A DNA stretch of 5,349 bases from a virus (lineage: Duplodnaviria > Heunggongvirae > Uroviricota > Caudoviricetes), in IMG/VR virus record IMGVR_UViG_2684622670_000010, positions 1 through 5,349 of that record. One strand, written 5' to 3'. A program made the position numbers and the translations under genes. The stretch's first letter is position 1. Each line of letters starts with the position of its first letter. The notes beneath the pieces were generated by a model, which was not told the origin of the DNA, did not search any database, and saw only the letters and a program-made list of their open reading frames with translations. Shown here in pieces: positions 1 to 5,349 of the stretch.

Positions 1-436
1 GTACCGGTTTAACCTCGTCACGGGGCTTTCTGATGGCTGAAAGACGCTTTACAAGCTCGTCCATCGCCTGACTCGATGTATCGATGGTTCCGCTCTGAAT
101 TGGTTCACGCATTTCATCCATGATTTCCAGCACCAGACGGCGGTGATAGTTATCCGCGACCATTCCGGCATATCCCTTCAGGTTTGCGGCGCTCGGGCAG
201 TTTTTGCTGGTCATCAGGATTGACGTGAAATGCTCCTCTCCGCACGCCTCGGCAACCATCAGCGCGTCGATTAGGTTTCTGTTTCTCGCCTGCTTGCGGA
301 TAACCTCGAAGGCTTTCCGGTAGAGCGGAATTGAAAACGCTTCCGGCTCAAGCGTTGCCAGAACGTCACTGGCAATTGGTGTTAATCCACCAATCAGCAG
401 GCCACCGATAACGCTCGCTTCGATATCCTGTTTCAT
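1..436 (-). CDS. DnaB-family replicative helicase, N-terminal part (partial; start codon at 436..434, gene runs off the left edge of the window)
   Basis: Hand translation of the minus strand from ATG 436..434 gives 145 codons with no stop ([34 protein letters not shown]...[34 protein letters not shown]...). The SVIGGLL and KNxPSAAN-x-YA-x-V motifs resemble the N-terminal domain of E. coli DnaB as recalled from memory. The start overlaps the O stop in an ATGA arrangement, and a GGGGGA Shine-Dalgarno lies 4 nt upstream. Position after an O-like gene matches the P22 gene 18 / gene 12 layout. Absent from the ORF track only because it is truncated by the window edge. Confidence 0.75.
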
Positions 437-1254
437 GCAATCCCCCTGTCTGCAAACTTCCCTTCCCGAACTCCCGTTAACGAATCTTCCCTCAGCAGGT
501 AATCAAAATCTGCCGTCCAGCCCGTGTCGTTGTCTCCGAAGTAAAACGGCTTGGCCTGATGCACAAACGCCCTGACATACGCTCTGAAACCGTCCACGTT
601 TGGCGTTTTCAGTTGCGGGATGATTTTCTTCAGGCGGCGTTTGCGTTTCTCGTTGACCGCAACAGCGTGTGGCAGTCTGTCACCGACTTCGGTGTTGTAG
701 GCGTTCAGGAAGGATTCGTAGTCGATGCGTTCTGCCTTGCGACGTTCAGGTTTAACCTGCCCATCGCCGCCCCCGTTAGGGGGTAAGGGGGTATTTGTAT
801 TTATTGTCTTTTGTATATTGTCTTTTGTGTTTAGCTGACTTGGCTTATACCCATTAGCCGAGTCGGCTAATGTTTTATTAGCTGTTTTAGCTAATGTTAA
901 GCTGTCCTGGCTAATCCACTGAGAAACCACCTTGTTCACTCCGATTTTCACGCCATCAGCAATGAGGAATTTACGCTCAATAAGCTGGCGCTTGGCAGCG
1001 CAAACATGAGTGTGATGAATACCTGTCATGGCTGCTATCTGCGTGTTTGTGAGTCGATCCATCGGCTTATTGAATCCGTATGTCTTGCGCATGATAGCGA
1101 GCATCACCTTCAACTGCCGGACAGTTAAATCAGCCATCAGCAGACTGTCGGTAATCTCGTTAGCAACGCGCATGAAACCATCTTCGGTATCTGCCACGCG
1201 ATGCTCCACGACCTCCAGTTGAGGCCTGTAATCAGCTAACTTAACGACGCCCAT
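433..1254 (-). CDS. O: Replication initiation protein, lambda O / P22 gp18 family (273 aa)
   Basis: ORF in the supplied track. Residues about 40-75 ([34 protein letters not shown]) match the conserved N-terminal ori-binding region of lambda O as recalled (DLTKRQFKVLLAILRKTYGWNKPMDRIT). Strong SD (AGGAG, 6-nt spacer) before ATG 1254. Iteron repeats and an AT-rich tract lie inside the coding sequence, as in lambda O. Followed by a translationally coupled helicase gene. Confidence 0.9.
770..830. other. ori flank: AT-rich DNA-unwinding region (792-830) plus a GC-rich palindrome (770-791)
   Basis: 792-830 is almost entirely A/T and holds a 12-bp direct repeat ATTGTCTTTTGT at 803-814 and 817-828. 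Immediately next to it is CCCCC-gtta-GGGGG (770-783) followed by a second GGGGG (787-791). The order iterons, AT-rich tract, palindrome, read in the O coding direction, matches the lambda ori layout as I recall it. Confidence 0.5.
831..915. repeat. Putative ori iterons: four about-19-bp repeats with internal dyad symmetry
   Basis: Seen directly: TTAGCTGACTTGGCTTATA (831-849), TTAGCCGAGTCGGCTAATG (854-872; core TTAGCCGA-G-TCGGCTAA is a perfect palindrome), TTAGCTGTTTTAGCTAATG (878-896), TTAAGCTGTCCTGGCTAAT (897-915). Start spacing is 23, 24 and 19 bp. They lie in the part of O that encodes the inter-domain linker, as the lambda iterons do. Confidence 0.6.
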
Positions 1255-1402
1255 GTTTCACTCCTGCTTTTGCTAGTCTGTAAACACCAACAAGGCGCTC
1301 TGCGAACGCCCTGTTATTTGCTGCGGCTACCACTAATCCCTCAGGTGAATCAGGGTGTCGAATCTCTTCTTTTTCCTGGTATTTCTTACGACGTTTTGTC
1401 AT
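1241..1402 (-). CDS. Hypothetical small basic protein (53 aa) between cII and O
   Basis: Hand translation from ATG 1402..1400: [53 protein letters not shown], stop TAA at 1243..1241. Strong SD: AGGAG, 5-nt spacer, then ATG. The 3' end overlaps the O start by 14 nt. Not in the ORF track (shorter than its apparent cutoff). No recognised homolog, and it overlaps the predicted pO promoter, so it may not be translated. Confidence 0.35.
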   Translation of the reverse strand: MTKRRKKYQEKEEIRHPDSPEGLVVAAANNRAFAERLVGVYRLAKAGVKHGRR

Positions 1403-1411
1403 AATTACTCC

Positions 1412-1488
1412 TGTAGATTGATCCAGTAATTCCCTCAGAATTGCATATCAATTTGCTTAGAGTCCCCGGCGGCCACCGGGGATTTTTT
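1412..1488 (+). ncRNA. oop: oop-like antisense RNA (about 77 nt) overlapping the 3' end of cII
   Basis: Extended -10 promoter on the plus strand (TG-t-CATAAT at 1397-1405) with a predicted start near 1412. Intrinsic terminator at 1464-1488 lies inside the cII coding sequence on the opposite strand. The geometry (about 77 nt, about 53 nt antisense to the cII 3' end, origin in the cII-O interval) matches lambda oop RNA. The -35 is weak and the 5' end is a prediction. Confidence 0.45.
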
Positions 1489-1731
1489 CTTTGTGATTCC
1501 ATCAAGCGCATACTTAAAAGCCCTGCTAATCGGACTGATGTCTGATGCCATTCCGAAAGCACACAAGACCGAAGCAATAAATCTCCAGTCCGTTCTGCTT
1601 ATCTTCGATTCATGACAGCCAATCATCTTTGCCAGACCGCGCTGTGTAAGCGTTGACAGGTTGATGAGTAAATCTGTTTCTGCGCGATCAACGTCGCGCT
1701 GTGATAGTTTGCTGTAACTTGTTTGTTCCAT
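1435..1731 (-). CDS. cII: CII-family transcriptional activator (98 aa; P22 c1 / lambda cII analog)
   Basis: ORF in the track. The HTH segment (GLAKMIGCHESKISRTD) and the C-terminal tail (KKKSPVAAGDSKQIDMQF) parallel lambda CII (recalled ...NKKRPAATERSEQIQMEF). Sits between cro/nutR and the O gene, as in lambdoid phages. Confidence 0.85.
   Translation of the reverse strand: MEQTSYSKLSQRDVDRAETDLLINLSTLTQRGLAKMIGCHESKISRTDWRFIASVLCAFGMASDISPISRAFKYALDGITKKKSPVAAGDSKQIDMQF
1464..1488 (+). terminator. Rho-independent terminator (oop-type) embedded antisense within cII
   Basis: CCCCGG (1464-1469), loop cggcca, CCGGGG (1476-1481), then A and TTTTTT (1483-1488). GC stem plus U-run on the plus strand only. 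Confidence 0.6.
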
Positions 1732-1741
1732 TTCTTACTAT
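1709..1741 (+). promoter_or_regulatory. Candidate PRE (CII-activated promoter for repressor establishment), reading toward cI antisense to cro
   Basis: TTGC (1709-1712), 6 bp, TTGT (1719-1722) resembles the CII site TTGC-N6-TTGC flanking a -35. A -10-like TACTAT (1736-1741) follows at a 17-bp spacing. The cII start codon on the opposite strand (1731..1729) falls in the spacer, as at lambda PRE. The second repeat is imperfect. Confidence 0.35.
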
Positions 1742-1795
1742 TTCCATAGGTAAATAATCACTAATACCCATCTTTCGATGAGCGCTTAATTAGTT

Positions 1796-1830
1796 ACCGC
1801 GTTGTCGGCGGTGCAGATTGATAAAGAGCG
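1796..1830 (-). promoter_or_regulatory. nutR (boxA + boxB N-utilisation site) in the cro-cII intergenic region
   Basis: Minus-strand reading: boxA CGCTCTTTA (1830..1822), 9-nt spacer, boxB ACCGC-CGACAAC-GCGGT (1812..1796), a 5-bp stem with a GACAA-containing loop. As recalled, this matches the P22 nutR boxB (ACCGCCGACAACGCGGU). A rho-dependent tR1 is expected downstream but cannot be seen from sequence. Confidence 0.7.
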
Positions 1831-1837
1831 ATGTTAC

Positions 1838-2065
1838 TTATGCAGCCAGAAGGTTCTTTTTGCTTATTTCAAGCATTTCGCTTGCTTGATATTTGCCACC
1901 AGAAATCTCTTCGATTTTTGATGCATATTTCGTTTTCCCAAAAAACTCAGTCTTAGGGAGGAAGCCGTTTTTAAGCCACTTATAGACAGCCCTTTCGCTA
2001 ACTCCACAAGCCTTCGCAACTTCAGGGATGCCGACACCTTTAATCGGCTCATCAAGATTTTGCAT
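1838..2065 (-). CDS. cro: Cro-like HTH DNA-binding protein (75 aa from ATG 2065; the track ORF extends to an upstream ATG at 2098)
   Basis: Divergent from the repressor gene. HTH-like segment IPEVAKACGVSERAVYKWLKNG. SD AAGGA lies 7-8 nt before ATG 2065; the upstream ATG 2098 has no SD and sits inside the predicted PR -10. Lysine-rich C-terminal tail. No recalled similarity to lambda or P22 Cro, so the call rests on position and the HTH. Confidence 0.7.
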   Translation of the reverse strand: MQNLDEPIKGVGIPEVAKACGVSERAVYKWLKNGFLPKTEFFGKTKYASKIEEISGGKYQASEMLEISKKNLLAA

Positions 2066-2143
2066 AGGAATATCCTTTTTCGTACTTTCAGTACGCATTA
2101 TGATTGAACTGAAAGTTTTTGCAAGTGCTTTAGTATCGTACTC
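2066..2143. promoter_or_regulatory. OR region: divergent PR (toward cro) and PRM (toward cI) with three dyad-symmetric candidate operators
   Basis: PR on the minus strand: -35 TTGCAA (2119-2124), 16-bp spacer, -10 CATAAT (2102..2097). Candidate operators: GTAC-tttca-GTAC (2082-2094), GAAC-tgaaa-GTTT (2106-2118), AGTA-tcg-TACT (2132-2142), with centres 24-25 bp apart. The cI ATG at 2144 has no SD, and a -10-like TAGTAT (2131-2136) would start a leaderless mRNA, as at lambda PRM. Confidence 0.55.
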
Positions 2144-2851
2144 ATGGTTCAGAATGAAAAAGTGCGCAAAGAATTCGCCCAGCGGCTAGCGCAAGCCTGT
2201 AAAGAAGCTGGTCTTGATGAACATGGTAGGGGGATGGCCATAGCCCGTGCCCTTTCTCTTTCGTCCAAAGGCGTTAGCAAATGGTTTAATGCTGAGTCTT
2301 TACCGCGTCAGGAAAAAATGAATGCGCTTGCGAAATTTCTAAACGTTGATGTTGTTTGGCTTCAGCACGGCACTTCGTTAAATGGAGCGAATGATGAAGA
2401 TACTCTTTCATTTGTTGGCAAATTAAAAAAAGGGTTAGTGCGCGTGGTTGGTGAGGCAATTCTTGGTGTTGATGGTGCCATCGAGATGACCGAAGAGCGC
2501 GATGGGTGGCTCAAGATTTATAGCGATGATCCAGATGCCTTTGGTCTTCGTGTGAAAGGAGACAGCATGTGGCCCAGAATAAAATCAGGAGAATATGTAC
2601 TCATTGAGCCTAACACCAAAGTATTCCCGGGTGATGAGGTGTTTGTCAGAACCATCGAAGGACACAACATGATCAAGATTCTTGGCTATGACAGAGACGG
2701 AGAATACCAATTTACAAGCATCAACCAAGACCATAGGCCAATAACGTTGCCTTATCATCAAGTAGCAAAGGTGGAGTATGTGGCTGGTATTCTGAAACAA
2801 TCTCGCCATCTGGATGACATCGAGGCAAGGGAGTGGCTGAGAGATTCCTGA
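2144..2851 (+). CDS. cI: Prophage repressor, CI/LexA family (N-terminal HTH domain + C-terminal S24 peptidase autocleavage domain; 235 aa)
   Basis: ORF in the track. N-terminal HTH (GMAIARALSLSSKGVSKWFNAE). C-terminal S24 catalytic serine motif GDSMWP and a downstream lysine (NMIKIL). Divergent from cro with the operator region between. No leader, consistent with PRM-type expression. Confidence 0.9.
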   Translation: MVQNEKVRKEFAQRLAQACKEAGLDEHGRGMAIARALSLSSKGVSKWFNAESLPRQEKMNALAKFLNVDVVWLQHGTSLNGANDEDTLSFVGKLKKGLVRVVGEAILGVDGAIEMTEERDGWLKIYSDDPDAFGLRVKGDSMWPRIKSGEYVLIEPNTKVFPGDEVFVRTIEGHNMIKILGYDRDGEYQFTSINQDHRPITLPYHQVAKVEYVAGILKQSRHLDDIEAREWLRDS

Positions 2852-2957
2852 CATCAGAGTCATAGAGTGAGTTTTCTAGTTAGAAATAGTGGTCAATGGG
2901 TACGCTTAGGTAAACCGTTTAAACATAATAAACAAGCCATATAAGATGAAATAAATC

Positions 2958-3335
2958 ATGAGCGATAAAGAGTTTAAAGTACTTGATTTTGATGATTTTG
3001 CTCATTATTTGAGCACATTGAACGGCGAACAAATTTGTCCAATGTGTATGGAAGAGTCATGGACGCTTTTCGCCCCAAACAAGCTTCCTCCAGAAGACGA
3101 GGATAGGTATGTAATAAGTTCTATCCCAGGATCACTTATTTCAAGTAAAAAACCTGAAAAATCAAATCTCTTCTTCAGAAGTTACAACAACGATGTCCTC
3201 CTGATGCAATGCAGAAATTGTGGATACATGGCATTTTTTAATTATAAAAAAGTCCAAGAAAACCTTGAATCAGGGGATTATATAAAAAAAGAAGATATAG
3301 ATATGGTGGATGAAAATGACAAATCAGAAGACTGA
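2958..3335 (+). CDS. Hypothetical protein (125 aa) with two CxxC pairs (putative zinc ribbon) and an acidic C-terminus; first gene of the AT-rich cassette after cI
   Basis: ORF in the track. CPMC (residues 27-30) and CRNC (85-88); tail DIDMVDENDKSED. Sampled 60-nt lines give about 25-38% GC against about 52% in cI. Weak SD. Separated from the cI stop by an AT-rich 106-bp spacer. No recognised homolog. Confidence 0.6.
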   Translation: MSDKEFKVLDFDDFAHYLSTLNGEQICPMCMEESWTLFAPNKLPPEDEDRYVISSIPGSLISSKKPEKSNLFFRSYNNDVLLMQCRNCGYMAFFNYKKVQENLESGDYIKKEDIDMVDENDKSED

Positions 3336-3795
3336 TTTCTTCCGTCCAATGGAGTATGATAATAACTATGAGCAATTTGGTGTTATAGAAGCACACAGGA
3401 ATGGTCGTTCTACTCCGTCATATCAGCCAGGCACCATTGGTAAGGATATCCCGGTTATTATTGCGCATAAGTTAAGCGATCAACCAGCAGGGGGTGAGCC
3501 ACAGATGAGCGTAAAATCACTGTCACGTTGGGAGTTTTGGCTAGGGATTTTCACTGCCATTATTGGGATATTTTCCATTGTTGTAGGAGCAACGTGGACA
3601 ATTTCTAATAATATCAATGATAAGATTAATGCATCAAGACAAGAGCTAACTGGGAACATCCAATCCAGTCGAGCAGAAATCACGGCAAGAATTGACAGGC
3701 TCGAAGATAAGATGGAGTCTAATTTCAAAGAAACATCATCGAATCTGTTCAAAATACAGGCAATTCTAGAAGCAAAATCCGACAAAGAAAAATAA
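3316..3795 (+). CDS. Hypothetical single-pass membrane protein (about 159 aa; the track ORF begins at 3310); second gene of the cassette
   Basis: Hydrophobic segment WEFWLGIFTAIIGIFSIVVGATW (about residues 74-96) flanked by K/R on the N-terminal side. C-terminal about 65 residues are polar and heptad-like (ELTGNIQSSRAEITARIDRLEDKMESNF). GGTGGA lies 5 nt before ATG 3316. The start overlaps the upstream gene's stop (3333-3335) by about 20 nt, suggesting translational coupling. About 30-42% GC in sampled lines. Confidence 0.6.
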   Translation: MTNQKTDFFRPMEYDNNYEQFGVIEAHRNGRSTPSYQPGTIGKDIPVIIAHKLSDQPAGGEPQMSVKSLSRWEFWLGIFTAIIGIFSIVVGATWTISNNINDKINASRQELTGNIQSSRAEITARIDRLEDKMESNFKETSSNLFKIQAILEAKSDKEK

Positions 3796-3800
3796 GAAAG

Positions 3801-3827
3801 TCCGGCCTCAGCGCCGGGTTTCCTTTG
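3801..3827 (+). terminator. Rho-independent terminator ending the cI-cassette transcript (tImm-like)
   Basis: UCCGGC (3801-3806), loop cucagc, GCCGGG (3813-3818), then TTTCCTTTG, 6 nt after the stop of the 159-aa gene. The U-tract is interrupted, so predicted strength is moderate. The A-rich 5' flank could allow some bidirectional activity. Confidence 0.5.
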
Positions 3828-3994
3828 CCTAACGATCGCCCTCCCATATTTAATAGCCGCAAATGTGGTAAACCGCGAACCAACTCACCAGCAATACTCC
3901 CTCCAACTACAGACCAATCTGCAGCATTTACAAAAATAAATTTCCTTATATATCAAAATCATATCTCGCTGCATTAATAAATCACAAAAATTTC

Positions 3995-4036
3995 GTACCA
4001 ATAGTTCTTGATAATATCGAACTATTGGTTCATTAT
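3995..4036 (+). promoter_or_regulatory. pL with overlapping OL operators
   Basis: -35 TTGATA (4008-4013), 17-bp spacer, -10 CATTAT (4031-4036), predicted start near 4043. Two dyads of the same type as in OR: GTAC-caata-GTTC (3995-4007) and GAAC-tattg-GTTC (4019-4031), centres 24 bp apart, overlapping -35 and the spacer/-10. A longer 10-bp inverted repeat CCAATAGTTC (3998-4007) / GAACTATTGG (4019-4028) spans the promoter. Confidence 0.5.
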
Positions 4037-4081
4037 CATCACATCAGCAGGACGCTGGAAGCCAAACGGAACAGATTGGCA

Positions 4082-4116
4082 GGCTCTTTAACTTCGATGG
4101 GGCGCTGACAAAGCGC
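4082..4116 (+). promoter_or_regulatory. nutL (boxA-like + boxB) downstream of pL
   Basis: boxA-like GGCTCTTTA (4082-4090), 11-nt spacer, boxB GCGCT-GACAA-AGCGC (4102-4116), a perfect 5-bp stem with a 5-nt loop. As recalled, this is identical to the P22 nutL boxB RNA (GCGCUGACAAAGCGC). Lies about 40 nt after the predicted pL start and about 120 nt before N. Confidence 0.75.
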
Positions 4117-4235
4117 AAACAGATACCAAACGAGATGGGTTTGGCGGTGATGTGAATTGCAGCTGCAACGACAGCAACCAGAAGATCAGCATCTGGCGCA
4201 TCACCACCAAAGCCATTTCACATGAGGAAAACATC

Positions 4236-4571
4236 ATGACGGTAATCGTGTACGGAAAATCAACATTTGCAGGAAATGCCAAAACTCGCCGTCATGAGCG
4301 GCGCAGAAAGCTGGCTATCGAGCGTGATGCCATCTGCAACATCATCGATTCGATCTTCGGCACAGACAGTGAGGAGCCTGTTCAGGAAGCCCCGAGAAAA
4401 CGTTTAAGCCTTTCTGAAAAAGCAATATCACTCGGAAGCCTTCGCTGCAAGAAGGCAGAAGAAGTCGAGCGTAAACAGAACCGTATTTACTACCGCAAGC
4501 CACGCAGTGAAATGGGTGTGACTTGTGTTGGTCGCCAGAAAATGAAATTAGGCAGCAAACCACTTATTTGA
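4236..4571 (+). CDS. N: N-family transcription antiterminator (111 aa) with a P22-type arginine-rich motif
   Basis: Internal ATG 4236 of track ORF 4152..4571, preceded by SD GAGGA with a 7-nt spacer. The N-terminus MTVIVYGKSTFAGNAKTRRHERRRKLAIERD contains GNAKTRRHERRRKLAIER, which I recall as the P22 N boxB-binding peptide. The C-terminus (RIYYRKPRSEMGVTCVGRQKMKLGSKPLI) parallels lambda N as recalled (RTWYSKPGERGITCSGRQKIKGKSIPLI). First gene after pL/nutL. Confidence 0.85.
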   Translation: MTVIVYGKSTFAGNAKTRRHERRRKLAIERDAICNIIDSIFGTDSEEPVQEAPRKRLSLSEKAISLGSLRCKKAEEVERKQNRIYYRKPRSEMGVTCVGRQKMKLGSKPLI

Positions 4572-4579
4572 GGTGATAT

Positions 4580-5029
4580 ATGGAAGAACAAGCAAACAAG
4601 ATTCTCGTAGAACTACTGCAAAAAGCCAGCAATGGAATAGACGCGGCCGTTTCATTTAGCCAGGCACAGATTCCTGATGTTGTTCATCAGTTGCTGCTAT
4701 GGAATATGGTTGACAGTCTGATTAAAACATTAATAGCCATTCTAACAATCCCACTGGTTTTCTGGTTTATGAAGAAGCAGTGCCAAAGAGTTGAGATAGG
4801 TAAAATCGGTGATGAAGGATATTCATGGGAGAAGGGAAATCCCAAATACAGGCCGACAATGGTTTGGGATAGCAAAGGTGATATTAATCTTCTTATCATG
4901 CCATTGGTTGGAGTTTTGACTCTGTGGGGGATTTTTATTATTGGTGTAGTAACCAATATGACTTGGTTAAAAATTTGGCTGGCTCCAAAGCTTTACCTTA
5001 TCGAATATGCAGCATCATTGGTTAAGTAA
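4580..5029 (+). CDS. Hypothetical small membrane protein (149 aa, two predicted TM segments) immediately downstream of N
   Basis: ORF in the track. The ATG lies 8 nt after the N stop and is preceded by GAGGTGA. Hydrophobic segments IKTLIAILTIPLVFWFM and LLIMPLVGVLTLWGIFIIGVVTNMTWL. Followed directly by an intrinsic terminator. No homolog recognised. Confidence 0.6.
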   Translation: MEEQANKILVELLQKASNGIDAAVSFSQAQIPDVVHQLLLWNMVDSLIKTLIAILTIPLVFWFMKKQCQRVEIGKIGDEGYSWEKGNPKYRPTMVWDSKGDINLLIMPLVGVLTLWGIFIIGVVTNMTWLKIWLAPKLYLIEYAASLVK

Positions 5030-5033
5030 TTTC

Positions 5034-5060
5034 AGGCCGCATAGTCGGCCTTTATTTTTG
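5034..5060 (+). terminator. Rho-independent terminator (tL1-like) after the N / membrane-protein pair
   Basis: AGGCCG (5034-5039), loop catagt, CGGCCT (5046-5051), then TTATTTTTG (5052-5060), 4 nt after the stop codon. Confidence 0.7.
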
Positions 5061-5178
5061 GCACTAACAACAGAATAAACACAGCACTGTGTATTCATTC
5101 CAACGAGTGAATACACGGAGCAATGTCGCTCGTAACTAAACAGGAGCCGACTTGTTCTGATCATTGGAAATCTTCTTT

Positions 5179-5206
5179 GCCCTCTAATGTGAGGGCGATT
5201 TTTTAT
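5179..5206 (+). terminator. Second rho-independent terminator
   Basis: GCCCTC (5179-5184), loop taatgt, GAGGGC (5191-5196), then GATTTTTTAT (5197-5206). Confidence 0.6.
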
Positions 5207-5224
5207 CTATGAGGATATGAATAG

Positions 5225-5349
5225 ATGTCAAACATCAAAAAATACATCATTGATTACGACTGGAAAGCATCAATAGAAATTGAAATCGACCATGACGTAA
5301 TGACAGAGGAAAAACTTCACCAGATTAATAATTTCTGGTCAGACTCTGA
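5225..5349 (+). CDS. Hypothetical protein, N-terminal 41 codons only (runs off the right edge of the window)
   Basis: ATG 5225 preceded by GAGGA (5211-5215, 9-nt spacer). Open frame to the window end: MSNIKKYIIDYDWKASIEIEIDHDVMTEEKLHQINNFWSDS. AT-rich. Not in the ORF track because no stop falls within the window. Confidence 0.4.
   Translation, partial: MSNIKKYIIDYDWKASIEIEIDHDVMTEEKLHQINNFWSDS

Follow-up and report, generated by a model that had tools for sequence, protein, structure and literature searches.

The open reading frame (ORF) at positions 4580-5029 of IMG/VR virus record IMGVR_UViG_2684622670_000010 (Caudoviricetes) is a genuine protein-coding gene, and on its profile match the product is a full-length member of PHROG 3054, a phage protein family of unknown function that includes the gene 34 protein (gp34) of phage Sf6. 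The stretch of DNA analysed, termed the window, comprises positions 1 to 5,349 of that record (5,349 nucleotides, nt). It covers the immunity region and the early-left part of a lambdoid prophage and is read here in the direction of pL. The ORF encodes a predicted two-pass membrane protein of 149 amino acids (aa), and the order pL, nutL, N, ORF and hairpin shows it to be the second cistron of a putative pL unit. By analogy with lambda, its product would be made together with the N protein during the first minutes of lytic growth, and antitermination would not be needed. We have high confidence in this account of what the gene is and of when it is made in this prophage. A stand-alone membrane effector of the lytic cycle, acting for example in exclusion or membrane protection, is the best explanation of the data as a whole, and it is put forward tentatively.

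Gene and protein family

The ORF is considered a real gene on the basis of 516 homologues at E <= 1e-3 in a word-indexed search, an exhaustive profile search that returned 2,552 family clusters at 50% identity, and synonymous turnover with retained amino acids. The N-terminal 42 aa of the alleles in Pantoea, Leclercia and Kluyvera show 88-90% identity, and only 15-16 of the 37-38 conserved residues are specified by the same codon. Such turnover with residues kept points to purifying selection on the protein.

The match to phrog_3054 (E = 5.1e-64) pairs residues 1-149 with profile positions 1-137 of 137, i.e. it extends over the full length of both. The Sf6 gene 34 protein (NP_958210) displays 49.7% identity over 100% of the query. 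Other named members are HF4s_0037, which is annotated as a 'TM helix-containing protein', SPN9CC_0015 and a protein of phage HK639. An earlier note on this DNA, made from the sequence alone, had seen no similarity to a known protein. This is correct with respect to characterised proteins, but it does not hold for the family, given the full-length membership and the relationship to Sf6 gene 34.

Scans of the protein against Pfam (E <= 1), NCBIfam and PADLOC gave no match, and none of the component families of PADLOC-DB v2 was hit at E <= 1. Sequences in the PDB show no match to the family. A Pfam scan of 118 diverse relatives yielded scattered chance matches to membrane families, with no more than three members each. 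The source names of about 240 homologues and of five clusters are just 'hypothetical protein' or 'Phage transmembrane protein', and these are also the names under which proteins 99% identical to the one in the window are already deposited. A literature search by context, family identifier, accessions and motif found nothing on the PHROG 3054 family. Near-identical full-length copies of the gene are present in 130 of 5,426 complete E. coli genomes (about 2.4%), and related alleles in 238.

With near-identical proteins already deposited, the sequence of the ORF is in itself ordinary. The interest lies not in this locus but in the breadth of PHROG 3054 and in the near-invariant termini that surround a swappable membrane core. 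A function found for one member would annotate thousands of phage genes, and it could reveal a conserved envelope target that is manipulated by many unrelated phages. In Shiga toxin (Stx)-converting and other lambdoid prophages, it would define what accompanies N at the very start of induction.

Protein architecture

The two hydrophobic segments recognized in the earlier note are borne out by a Kyte-Doolittle scan with a 19-residue window, with peaks of 2.0 and 2.45 at aa ~43-63 and ~103-126, respectively. They are termed transmembrane segments TM1 and TM2. Together with a loop and two terminal regions they divide the protein into five parts (Table 1), for which identities are given as mean pairwise values over the 118 diverse members. 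F26 and P32 are invariant among these members, and the sequences QLL.W near the N-terminus and APK..L.EYA near the C-terminus are conserved in at least 90%. The C-terminal motif reads WL(K/Q)IW(I/L)APK(L/V)(Y/W)L(I/L)EYAAxL(V/I)K. The protein in the window has the family residue at every motif column (F26, P32, Q37-L39, W41, A135-P136-K137, E142 and Y143). In the alignment of 118 members, 104 sequences allowed both end motifs to be placed along with two distinct hydrophobic peaks, at a mean peak hydropathy of 2.3.

The loop varies from 10 to 66 aa across the family, and short alleles such as SPN9CC_0015 (121 aa) have almost none. Among the enterobacterial alleles, loop residues W83, G86, P88, T93, W96 and G100 are conserved. 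An AlphaFold2 (AF2) model made with the 118 sequences has a predicted local distance difference test score (pLDDT) of 80.3. In it, the N-terminal segment and TM1 form a single long helix (2-68), followed by a short loop that contains beta structure, TM2 (106-125) and a C-terminal helix (128-148). Fold searches retrieved homologues or generic helical hairpins and nothing else.

Since there are two membrane spans, the conserved N- and C-terminal ends must be on one and the same side. The charge bias around TM1, with a lysine/arginine (K/R) value of 0.58 in the 15 residues before the segment and 3.53 after it, predicts that the ends are outside and the loop inside.

Allele mosaicism

Alleles from E. 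coli, Salmonella and Shigella have DNA that is 95-97% identical over the first ~116 nt and the last ~70 nt, and a middle portion that gives no megablast match. Codons are identical at 35-36 of the 39-40 conserved N-terminal residues. The TM-loop-TM core is replaced by unrelated sequence, and three or more types of core can be distinguished when the window is compared with the alleles of loci L003 (phage SPN9CC), L010 and L051. With identical end codons around an unrelated middle, the alleles are recent intragenic mosaics in which the TM-loop-TM core has been exchanged as a cassette. At the level of the family, selection acts mainly on the N-terminal ~42 and C-terminal ~23 residues, and the core needs only to stay hydrophobic.

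Two loci deserve separate mention. In SPN9CC (L003 2961-3000) the short allele follows sieB, not N, yet the sequence before it contains a remnant of the 3' end of N, ...tttactaccgcaagccac|tatttaaggtgatat. Relative to positions 4478-4579 of the window, the remnant has an internal deletion between two 'ccac' repeats. Its presence suggests that the cassette moved along with a piece of N. In phage HK633 (L002 2691-3366), tblastn shows an intact SPN9CC-type allele at 3001-3363. The HK633 record has HK633_045 and HK633_044 across this allele instead, which is probably a mis-annotation.

Transcription unit and lysogeny

The N stop codon (TGA, 4569-4571) is separated from the ATG of the ORF at 4580 by a gap of 8 nt (GGTGATAT), and a strong Shine-Dalgarno sequence overlaps that stop codon. 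E. coli, Salmonella and Shigella alleles retain the junction sequence (T/C)(G/A)AGGTGA(T/G)AT-ATG, whichever gene is upstream. In a scan of positions 3700-5349, the pL-like promoter is the sole promoter-like site on the + strand 5' of N, and its position relative to the operators and nutL agrees with the layouts of lambda and P22. Between this promoter and the ORF the scan found no sigma-70-like promoter and no terminator-like site. N and the ORF are thus expected, as in lambda, to share an immediate-early transcript that is independent of antitermination. The earlier note had described the 8-nt gap with its Shine-Dalgarno sequence, co-transcription with N from pL and an intrinsic terminator directly 3' of the gene, and all of these fit the layout found here.

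The same note had allowed for low-level expression in lysogens, and the layout gives this no support: pL is flanked by two operator-like sites and no internal promoter was found. The pattern GWAC-N5-GTWC occurs four times in the window, where 0.12 occurrences are expected. Two of the sites are between cro and cI (2082-2094 and 2138-2150), and two are around the pL -35 hexamer. From pattern and position we infer that they are repressor operators. Operator-like sites at pL imply repression in the lysogen, and the ORF is probably silent there because pL would be regulated by repressor.

The hairpin that follows the ORF is GC-rich, begins 5 nt past the stop codon and has a predicted stability of -9.7 kcal/mol (z = -2.3). 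The hairpin is retained by 57 of 80 close relatives, and lambda has its 3' half and T-tract downstream of ral. By alignment, the window from 5045 on is almost the same as the lambda sequence between ral and ea10 and as the first part of ea10. Within this region lies the lambdoid boundary sequence (Table 1). Its 14-bp hairpin has a stability of -21.7 kcal/mol (z = -7.2) and its tL2a-type terminator one of -14.2 kcal/mol (z = -4.6). About 140 nt of it are identical, a few substitutions aside, in the window, in the ral-ea10 intergenic region of lambda and in Sf6, and the Sf6 record labels the counterpart 'bsq4 boundary sequence' and tL2A. When the whole window was scanned against Rfam, nothing matched at E <= 1, and the region of hairpins is therefore not a known RNA family. 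Such strong conservation of non-coding sequence suggests a function as an RNA or as a recombination linker.

Genomic contexts of the family

The ORF fills the slot between N and the tL2a/ea10 region. The earlier note placed the gene in an accessory position, and the slot is indeed variable: it holds sieB, orf28 and ral in lambda, gene 36, ral and gene 34 in Sf6, and sieB plus the short allele in SPN9CC. Other E. coli prophages with the same flanks have ral or an Nmad5 gene there instead. The pL-operon neighbourhood of the window is the same in Sf6, HF4s, SPN9CC and UTI89, and Sf6 gp34, HF4s_0037 and SPN9CC_0015 have the same two-TM layout and end motifs. These alleles differ from that of the window in the TM-loop-TM core, with its loop of variable length, and in the preceding gene, which is N here and ral in Sf6.

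The family is carried by lambdoid and P22-like prophages and by virulent N4-like, phi92-like, Vibrio, Pseudomonas and jumbo Ralstonia phages. Where an upstream gene could be identified (128 loci), it is an N- or Nun-type antiterminator in 56 and ral in five. In lambdoid phages kil and cIII belong to the same pL operon as the family member. Among 37 species-representative genomes, about 10 have the gene at the end of the lysis cassette, with the Rz/Rz1 spanin genes immediately upstream; a gap of -4 to 8 nt separates it from these genes in prophages of Buttiauxella, Dryocola, Proteus, Providencia and Xenorhabdus. The Proteus member overlaps the Rz stop codon. On two P22-like contigs a family member is part of the late operon, with homologues of gp4 and gp10 on either side. 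In a Vibrio myophage the gene is an opposite-strand insert in the tail module, accompanied by a bidirectional terminator. In the virulent N4-like, phi92-like, Vibrio and Pseudomonas phages it is among early or middle genes, and a jumbo Ralstonia phage has three copies. The tight linkage to N emphasized in the earlier note is thus typical of enterobacterial alleles, but it is not a property of the family, members of which also follow Rz/Rz1 or are situated in late operons and in virulent phages.

Clustering of neighbours, in 44 and then in 131 loci, revealed no neighbour common to all contexts, and no relationship exists among the proteins encoded downstream in HF4s, in an N4-like phage and in a phi92-like phage. 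This argues for a self-contained cargo gene that lands at module boundaries. The comparison of loci shows that the gene travels alone as cargo, in temperate and virulent phages of Gamma- and Betaproteobacteria.

On the two P22-like contigs (L057 3826-4380 and L058 4504-5004), a protein of 166-184 aa precedes the family member with a 4-nt overlap. It has a conserved C-terminal domain (phrog_2452 and phrog_35158, function unknown). Both genes form an insert between homologues of gp4 and gp10, and the pair may constitute a local cargo unit.

Comparison with known phage membrane proteins

SieA of P22 blocks DNA delivery at the inner membrane (PMC10883804). Like the ORF product, this phage protein of the inner membrane is small (162-164 aa), acts without partners and is encoded by an accessory gene, although for the ORF product a mode of action is only proposed. 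SieA differs in having three predicted TM helices rather than two (PMC10883804), its own promoter, expression from the prophage and a location in the immI region. The two proteins appear unrelated, with a BLASTP E of 0.16 over 38 aa and an hhalign probability of 0.21%, and the ORF product is not of the SieA type.

The sieB gene was the lead followed in the earlier note. SieB (PF14163) is an abortive-infection protein, and it does occupy this neighbourhood: in lambda and P22 its gene is just downstream of N, and its product is also a membrane protein. The likeness ends there, as sieB is transcribed against pL from its own promoter in the P22 and lambda records, whereas the ORF has the orientation of pL and N and no promoter-like site is present from 4036 to 4580. 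SieB is also active in lysogens according to record annotation, which sets it apart from the ORF. There is no sequence match; Pfam gave none at E <= 1 and hhalign gave probabilities of 0.23% with P22 SieB and 0.14% with lambda SieB. SPN9CC carries both sieB and a PHROG 3054 member.

HK97 gp15 is a moron-encoded inner-membrane exclusion protein expressed from the prophage. It resembles the ORF product as a small membrane cargo protein encoded at a module boundary, and some members of the family are likewise found in tail or late operons, but it has only 62 aa. The hhalign probability is 0.40% for HK97 gp15 and 0.17% for RexB. Comparison of the ORF product with P22 gp17, orf78, orf87, Ral, SieA and SieB gave nothing. 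T4 Imm, of about 83 aa, is a membrane protein of early lytic growth. It resembles the ORF product in timing and size alone, being a small, stand-alone membrane protein made early in the lytic cycle, and PHROG 3054 is carried by virulent phages too. The product of the ORF would fit this description through its two TM helices and its N-independent pL unit, from which its expression is predicted. Holin and antiholin families in Pfam or PHROGs matched neither the ORF product nor the 118 relatives, and the gene in the window is in the pL operon rather than in a lysis cassette.

Possible function

How might such a protein act? In the preferred reading, a stand-alone effector of the lytic cycle, the two conserved terminal helices would form one small juxtamembrane module, and this module would bind a conserved component of the host envelope or inner membrane, or else self-assemble. 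Conserved ends with a free core, in phages of very different hosts, fit a host target or self-assembly better than a variable protein of a competitor. Acting alone, the protein may make the inner membrane of the infected cell refractory to a second phage genome or to membrane-directed suicide. The timing would be like that of T4 Imm and unlike that of the lysogen-expressed sieA, sieB and rex genes. Exclusion or membrane protection as the specific mechanism is possible but doubtful, and an exclusion role in particular is a reasonable guess of low confidence. On a wider scale, PHROG 3054 may perhaps represent an unrecognised and widespread class of stand-alone phage membrane effectors, in which a module of N- and C-terminal helices engages a universal proteobacterial envelope component and a swappable TM-loop-TM cassette provides tuning. 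The outcome could be general exclusion, a block of abortive infection or takeover of the envelope. The module would possibly be periplasmic, as the charge bias of TM1 predicts. This generalization is doubtful as well. If true, it would describe a mechanism common to temperate and virulent phages, and the protein would be the first one besides N to appear on induction.

Several observations weigh against the proposed effector role. Exclusion proteins aimed at the injection machinery of competitors are usually diverse where they contact the target, and in PHROG 3054 it is the ends outside the membrane that are best conserved, even between phages whose hosts differ widely. No annotation or literature found ties any PHROG 3054 member to exclusion. 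Relationships by sequence or profile to SieA, SieB, RexB and HK97 gp15 were absent (hhalign below 1%), as was any PADLOC match. The AF2 monomer has a predicted template modelling score (pTM) of only 0.54. Signals of topology conflict, as the flanks of TM2 and the short-loop alleles point in the opposite direction to the charge bias of TM1, and because of these conflicting positive-inside signals no orientation is committed to. Finally, approximately a quarter of the species-level prophage loci are at the end of the lysis cassette, where the gene sometimes overlaps the Rz stop codon, and these loci keep a lysis-related role under consideration.

The conservation of the ends also fits a host-takeover factor without any exclusion role, whose terminal helices bind, inhibit or re-direct a conserved inner-membrane or juxtamembrane protein of the host (in division, proteolysis, transport or respiration) and so aid replication. 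Because conserved ends suit a host target, this explanation, while somewhat unlikely in itself, is nearly as likely as the favoured one. That phages with hosts among Enterobacterales, Vibrio, Pseudomonas and Burkholderiales all retain the ends is an argument for a conserved target. The positions among early or middle genes of virulent phages are consistent with it, as is the pL operon shared with kil and cIII in lambdoid phages; the small peptides that these two pL genes encode act on FtsZ/ZipA and FtsH. However, no target can be named, homology to Kil, cIII or a characterised host-takeover protein is absent, and the late-operon and lysis-cassette locations would be unusual for an early takeover factor. 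A role in counter-defence, in which the protein counteracts abortive-infection effectors that act on the membrane or keeps the membrane potential from being lost prematurely during infection, is rather improbable. T4 rII, which acts against RexAB, would be its functional analogue. Such a gene would be useful to virulent and temperate phages alike, the accessory-slot sites and the swapping of alleles are typical of arms-race genes, and the three copies in the jumbo Ralstonia phage are also in keeping. This evidence is purely circumstantial, the protein resembles no known anti-defence protein or defence component, and the hypervariable part consists of membrane core and loop, with no obvious recognition surface.

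The loci that directly follow Rz/Rz1, with their narrow gaps in five genera, raise the question of whether the protein is a regulator of lysis timing (antiholin-like or holin-accessory) or another component of the lysis cassette, and a small protein with two TM helices has the form of class II holins. Most enterobacterial alleles, and that of the window, are nevertheless in the early pL operon far from lysis genes; members in virulent phages adjoin replication or early genes, and the holin and antiholin families of Pfam and PHROGs are not matched. Holins are moreover extremely diverse, in contrast to ends that are conserved here across phages with different lysis systems, and cargo genes such as lambda bor are known from the end of the lysis cassette as well. 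This explanation is unlikely, a little more so than counter-defence. The least likely, and very improbable, is a superinfection-exclusion or abortive-infection gene of the sieB, sieA or rex type that is expressed in the lysogen. In its favour, the gene occupies the place between N and tL2a that sieB takes in lambda and P22, and some phages have the gene as an independent late-operon insert in the manner of the HK97 gp15 moron. It is contradicted by the repressor operator-like sites at pL with no promoter-like site from there to the ORF, by an orientation that is that of pL and not of sieB, by the absence of a relationship to PF14163 or to SieA, SieB and RexB sequences, and by coexistence with sieB in SPN9CC. 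In addition, the gene is common in virulent phages, which have no lysogens.

Other features of the window

Table 1. Positions of features in the window, and parts of the protein encoded at 4580-5029
Feature	Position	Strand	Remarks
O-type replication gene	433-1254	-	
cII	1435-1731	-	
cro-like gene	1838-2098	-	
cI repressor	2144-2851	+	S24/LexA-type
Two overlapping ORFs, rexA/rexB position	2958-3335 and 3310-3795	+	
Operator-like dyads	3995-4031		GTACCAATAGTTC (3995-4007) and GAACTATTGGTTC (4019-4031); bracket pL -35 hexamer
pL-like promoter	4008-4036	+	TTGATA, 17 nt spacer, CATTAT; promoter scan
nutL	4082-4116	+	boxA-like GGCTCTTTAAC (4082-4092); boxB GCGCU-GACAA-AGCGC (4102-4116)
N antitermination gene	4236-4571	+	111 aa; PF25694 N_peptide, E 1.9e-26; phrog_271, E 2.3e-46
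Strong Shine-Dalgarno sequence of ORF 4580-5029	4570-4577	+	GAGGTGAT; overlaps N stop codon
ORF 4580-5029, predicted two-pass membrane protein	4580-5029	+	149 aa; PHROG 3054, Sf6 gp34-like; ATG start
Conserved N-terminal helical segment (aa 1-42)	4580-4705	+	Motif F26..Q..(I/L)P(D/E)V..QLL.W; identity 48%
TM1 (aa ~43-63)	4706-4768	+	Hydropathy; inside AF2 helix 2-68; identity 20%
Variable loop (aa 64-102)	4769-4885	+	K/R-rich start KKQCQR; identity 12% family-wide
TM2 (aa ~103-126)	4886-4957	+	Hydropathy peak 2.45; AF2 helix 106-125; identity 10%
Conserved C-terminal amphipathic helix (aa 127-149)	4958-5026	+	Identity 67%, highest in the protein; AF2 helices 128-134 and 136-148
Intrinsic-terminator-like hairpin and T-tract	5034-5060	+	AGGCCG-CATAGT-CGGCCT (5034-5051), then TTATTTTT; ends N-ORF unit
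Conserved lambdoid 'boundary' sequence	5061-5224	+	14-bp hairpin (~5087-5118); tL2a-type terminator (5177-5198)
Start of lambda ea10 homologue (DUF2528)	5225-5349	+	Cut by window end; same as lambda ea10 start in alignment

The boxB hairpin of nutL has a 5-bp stem and a pentaloop (-8.6 kcal/mol, z = -3.2) and is of the P22 type, as is the arginine-rich motif of the N protein, GNAKTRRHERRRKLAIERD, which is that of P22 gp24. The N gene looks chimeric. Its N-terminal arginine-rich motif is of the P22 gp24 type, and the C-terminal half is unlike P22 gp24 and resembles the N 3' end found beside other alleles of the ORF 4580-5029 gene. The ea10 homologue at the end of the window is named 'DUF2528 family protein' in RefSeq.

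The two ORFs in the rexA/rexB position encode a 125-aa protein (2958-3335) with CxxC...CxxC zinc-ribbon-like motifs (phrog_4293) and a 161-aa protein (3310-3795) with one TM helix and a C-terminal coiled coil (phrog_24865), and a hairpin is present at 3802-3817. Neither protein has a match in Pfam, NCBIfam or PADLOC. In E. coli prophages whose flanks are ~96-97% identical, the same slot holds genes for a Ser/Thr kinase plus DUF3024, for DUF1828, for an SDH Clp-fold protease or for NYN proteins. The pair at 2958-3795 looks like a candidate two-gene defence cassette, expressed in the lysogen and situated in a variable hotspot.

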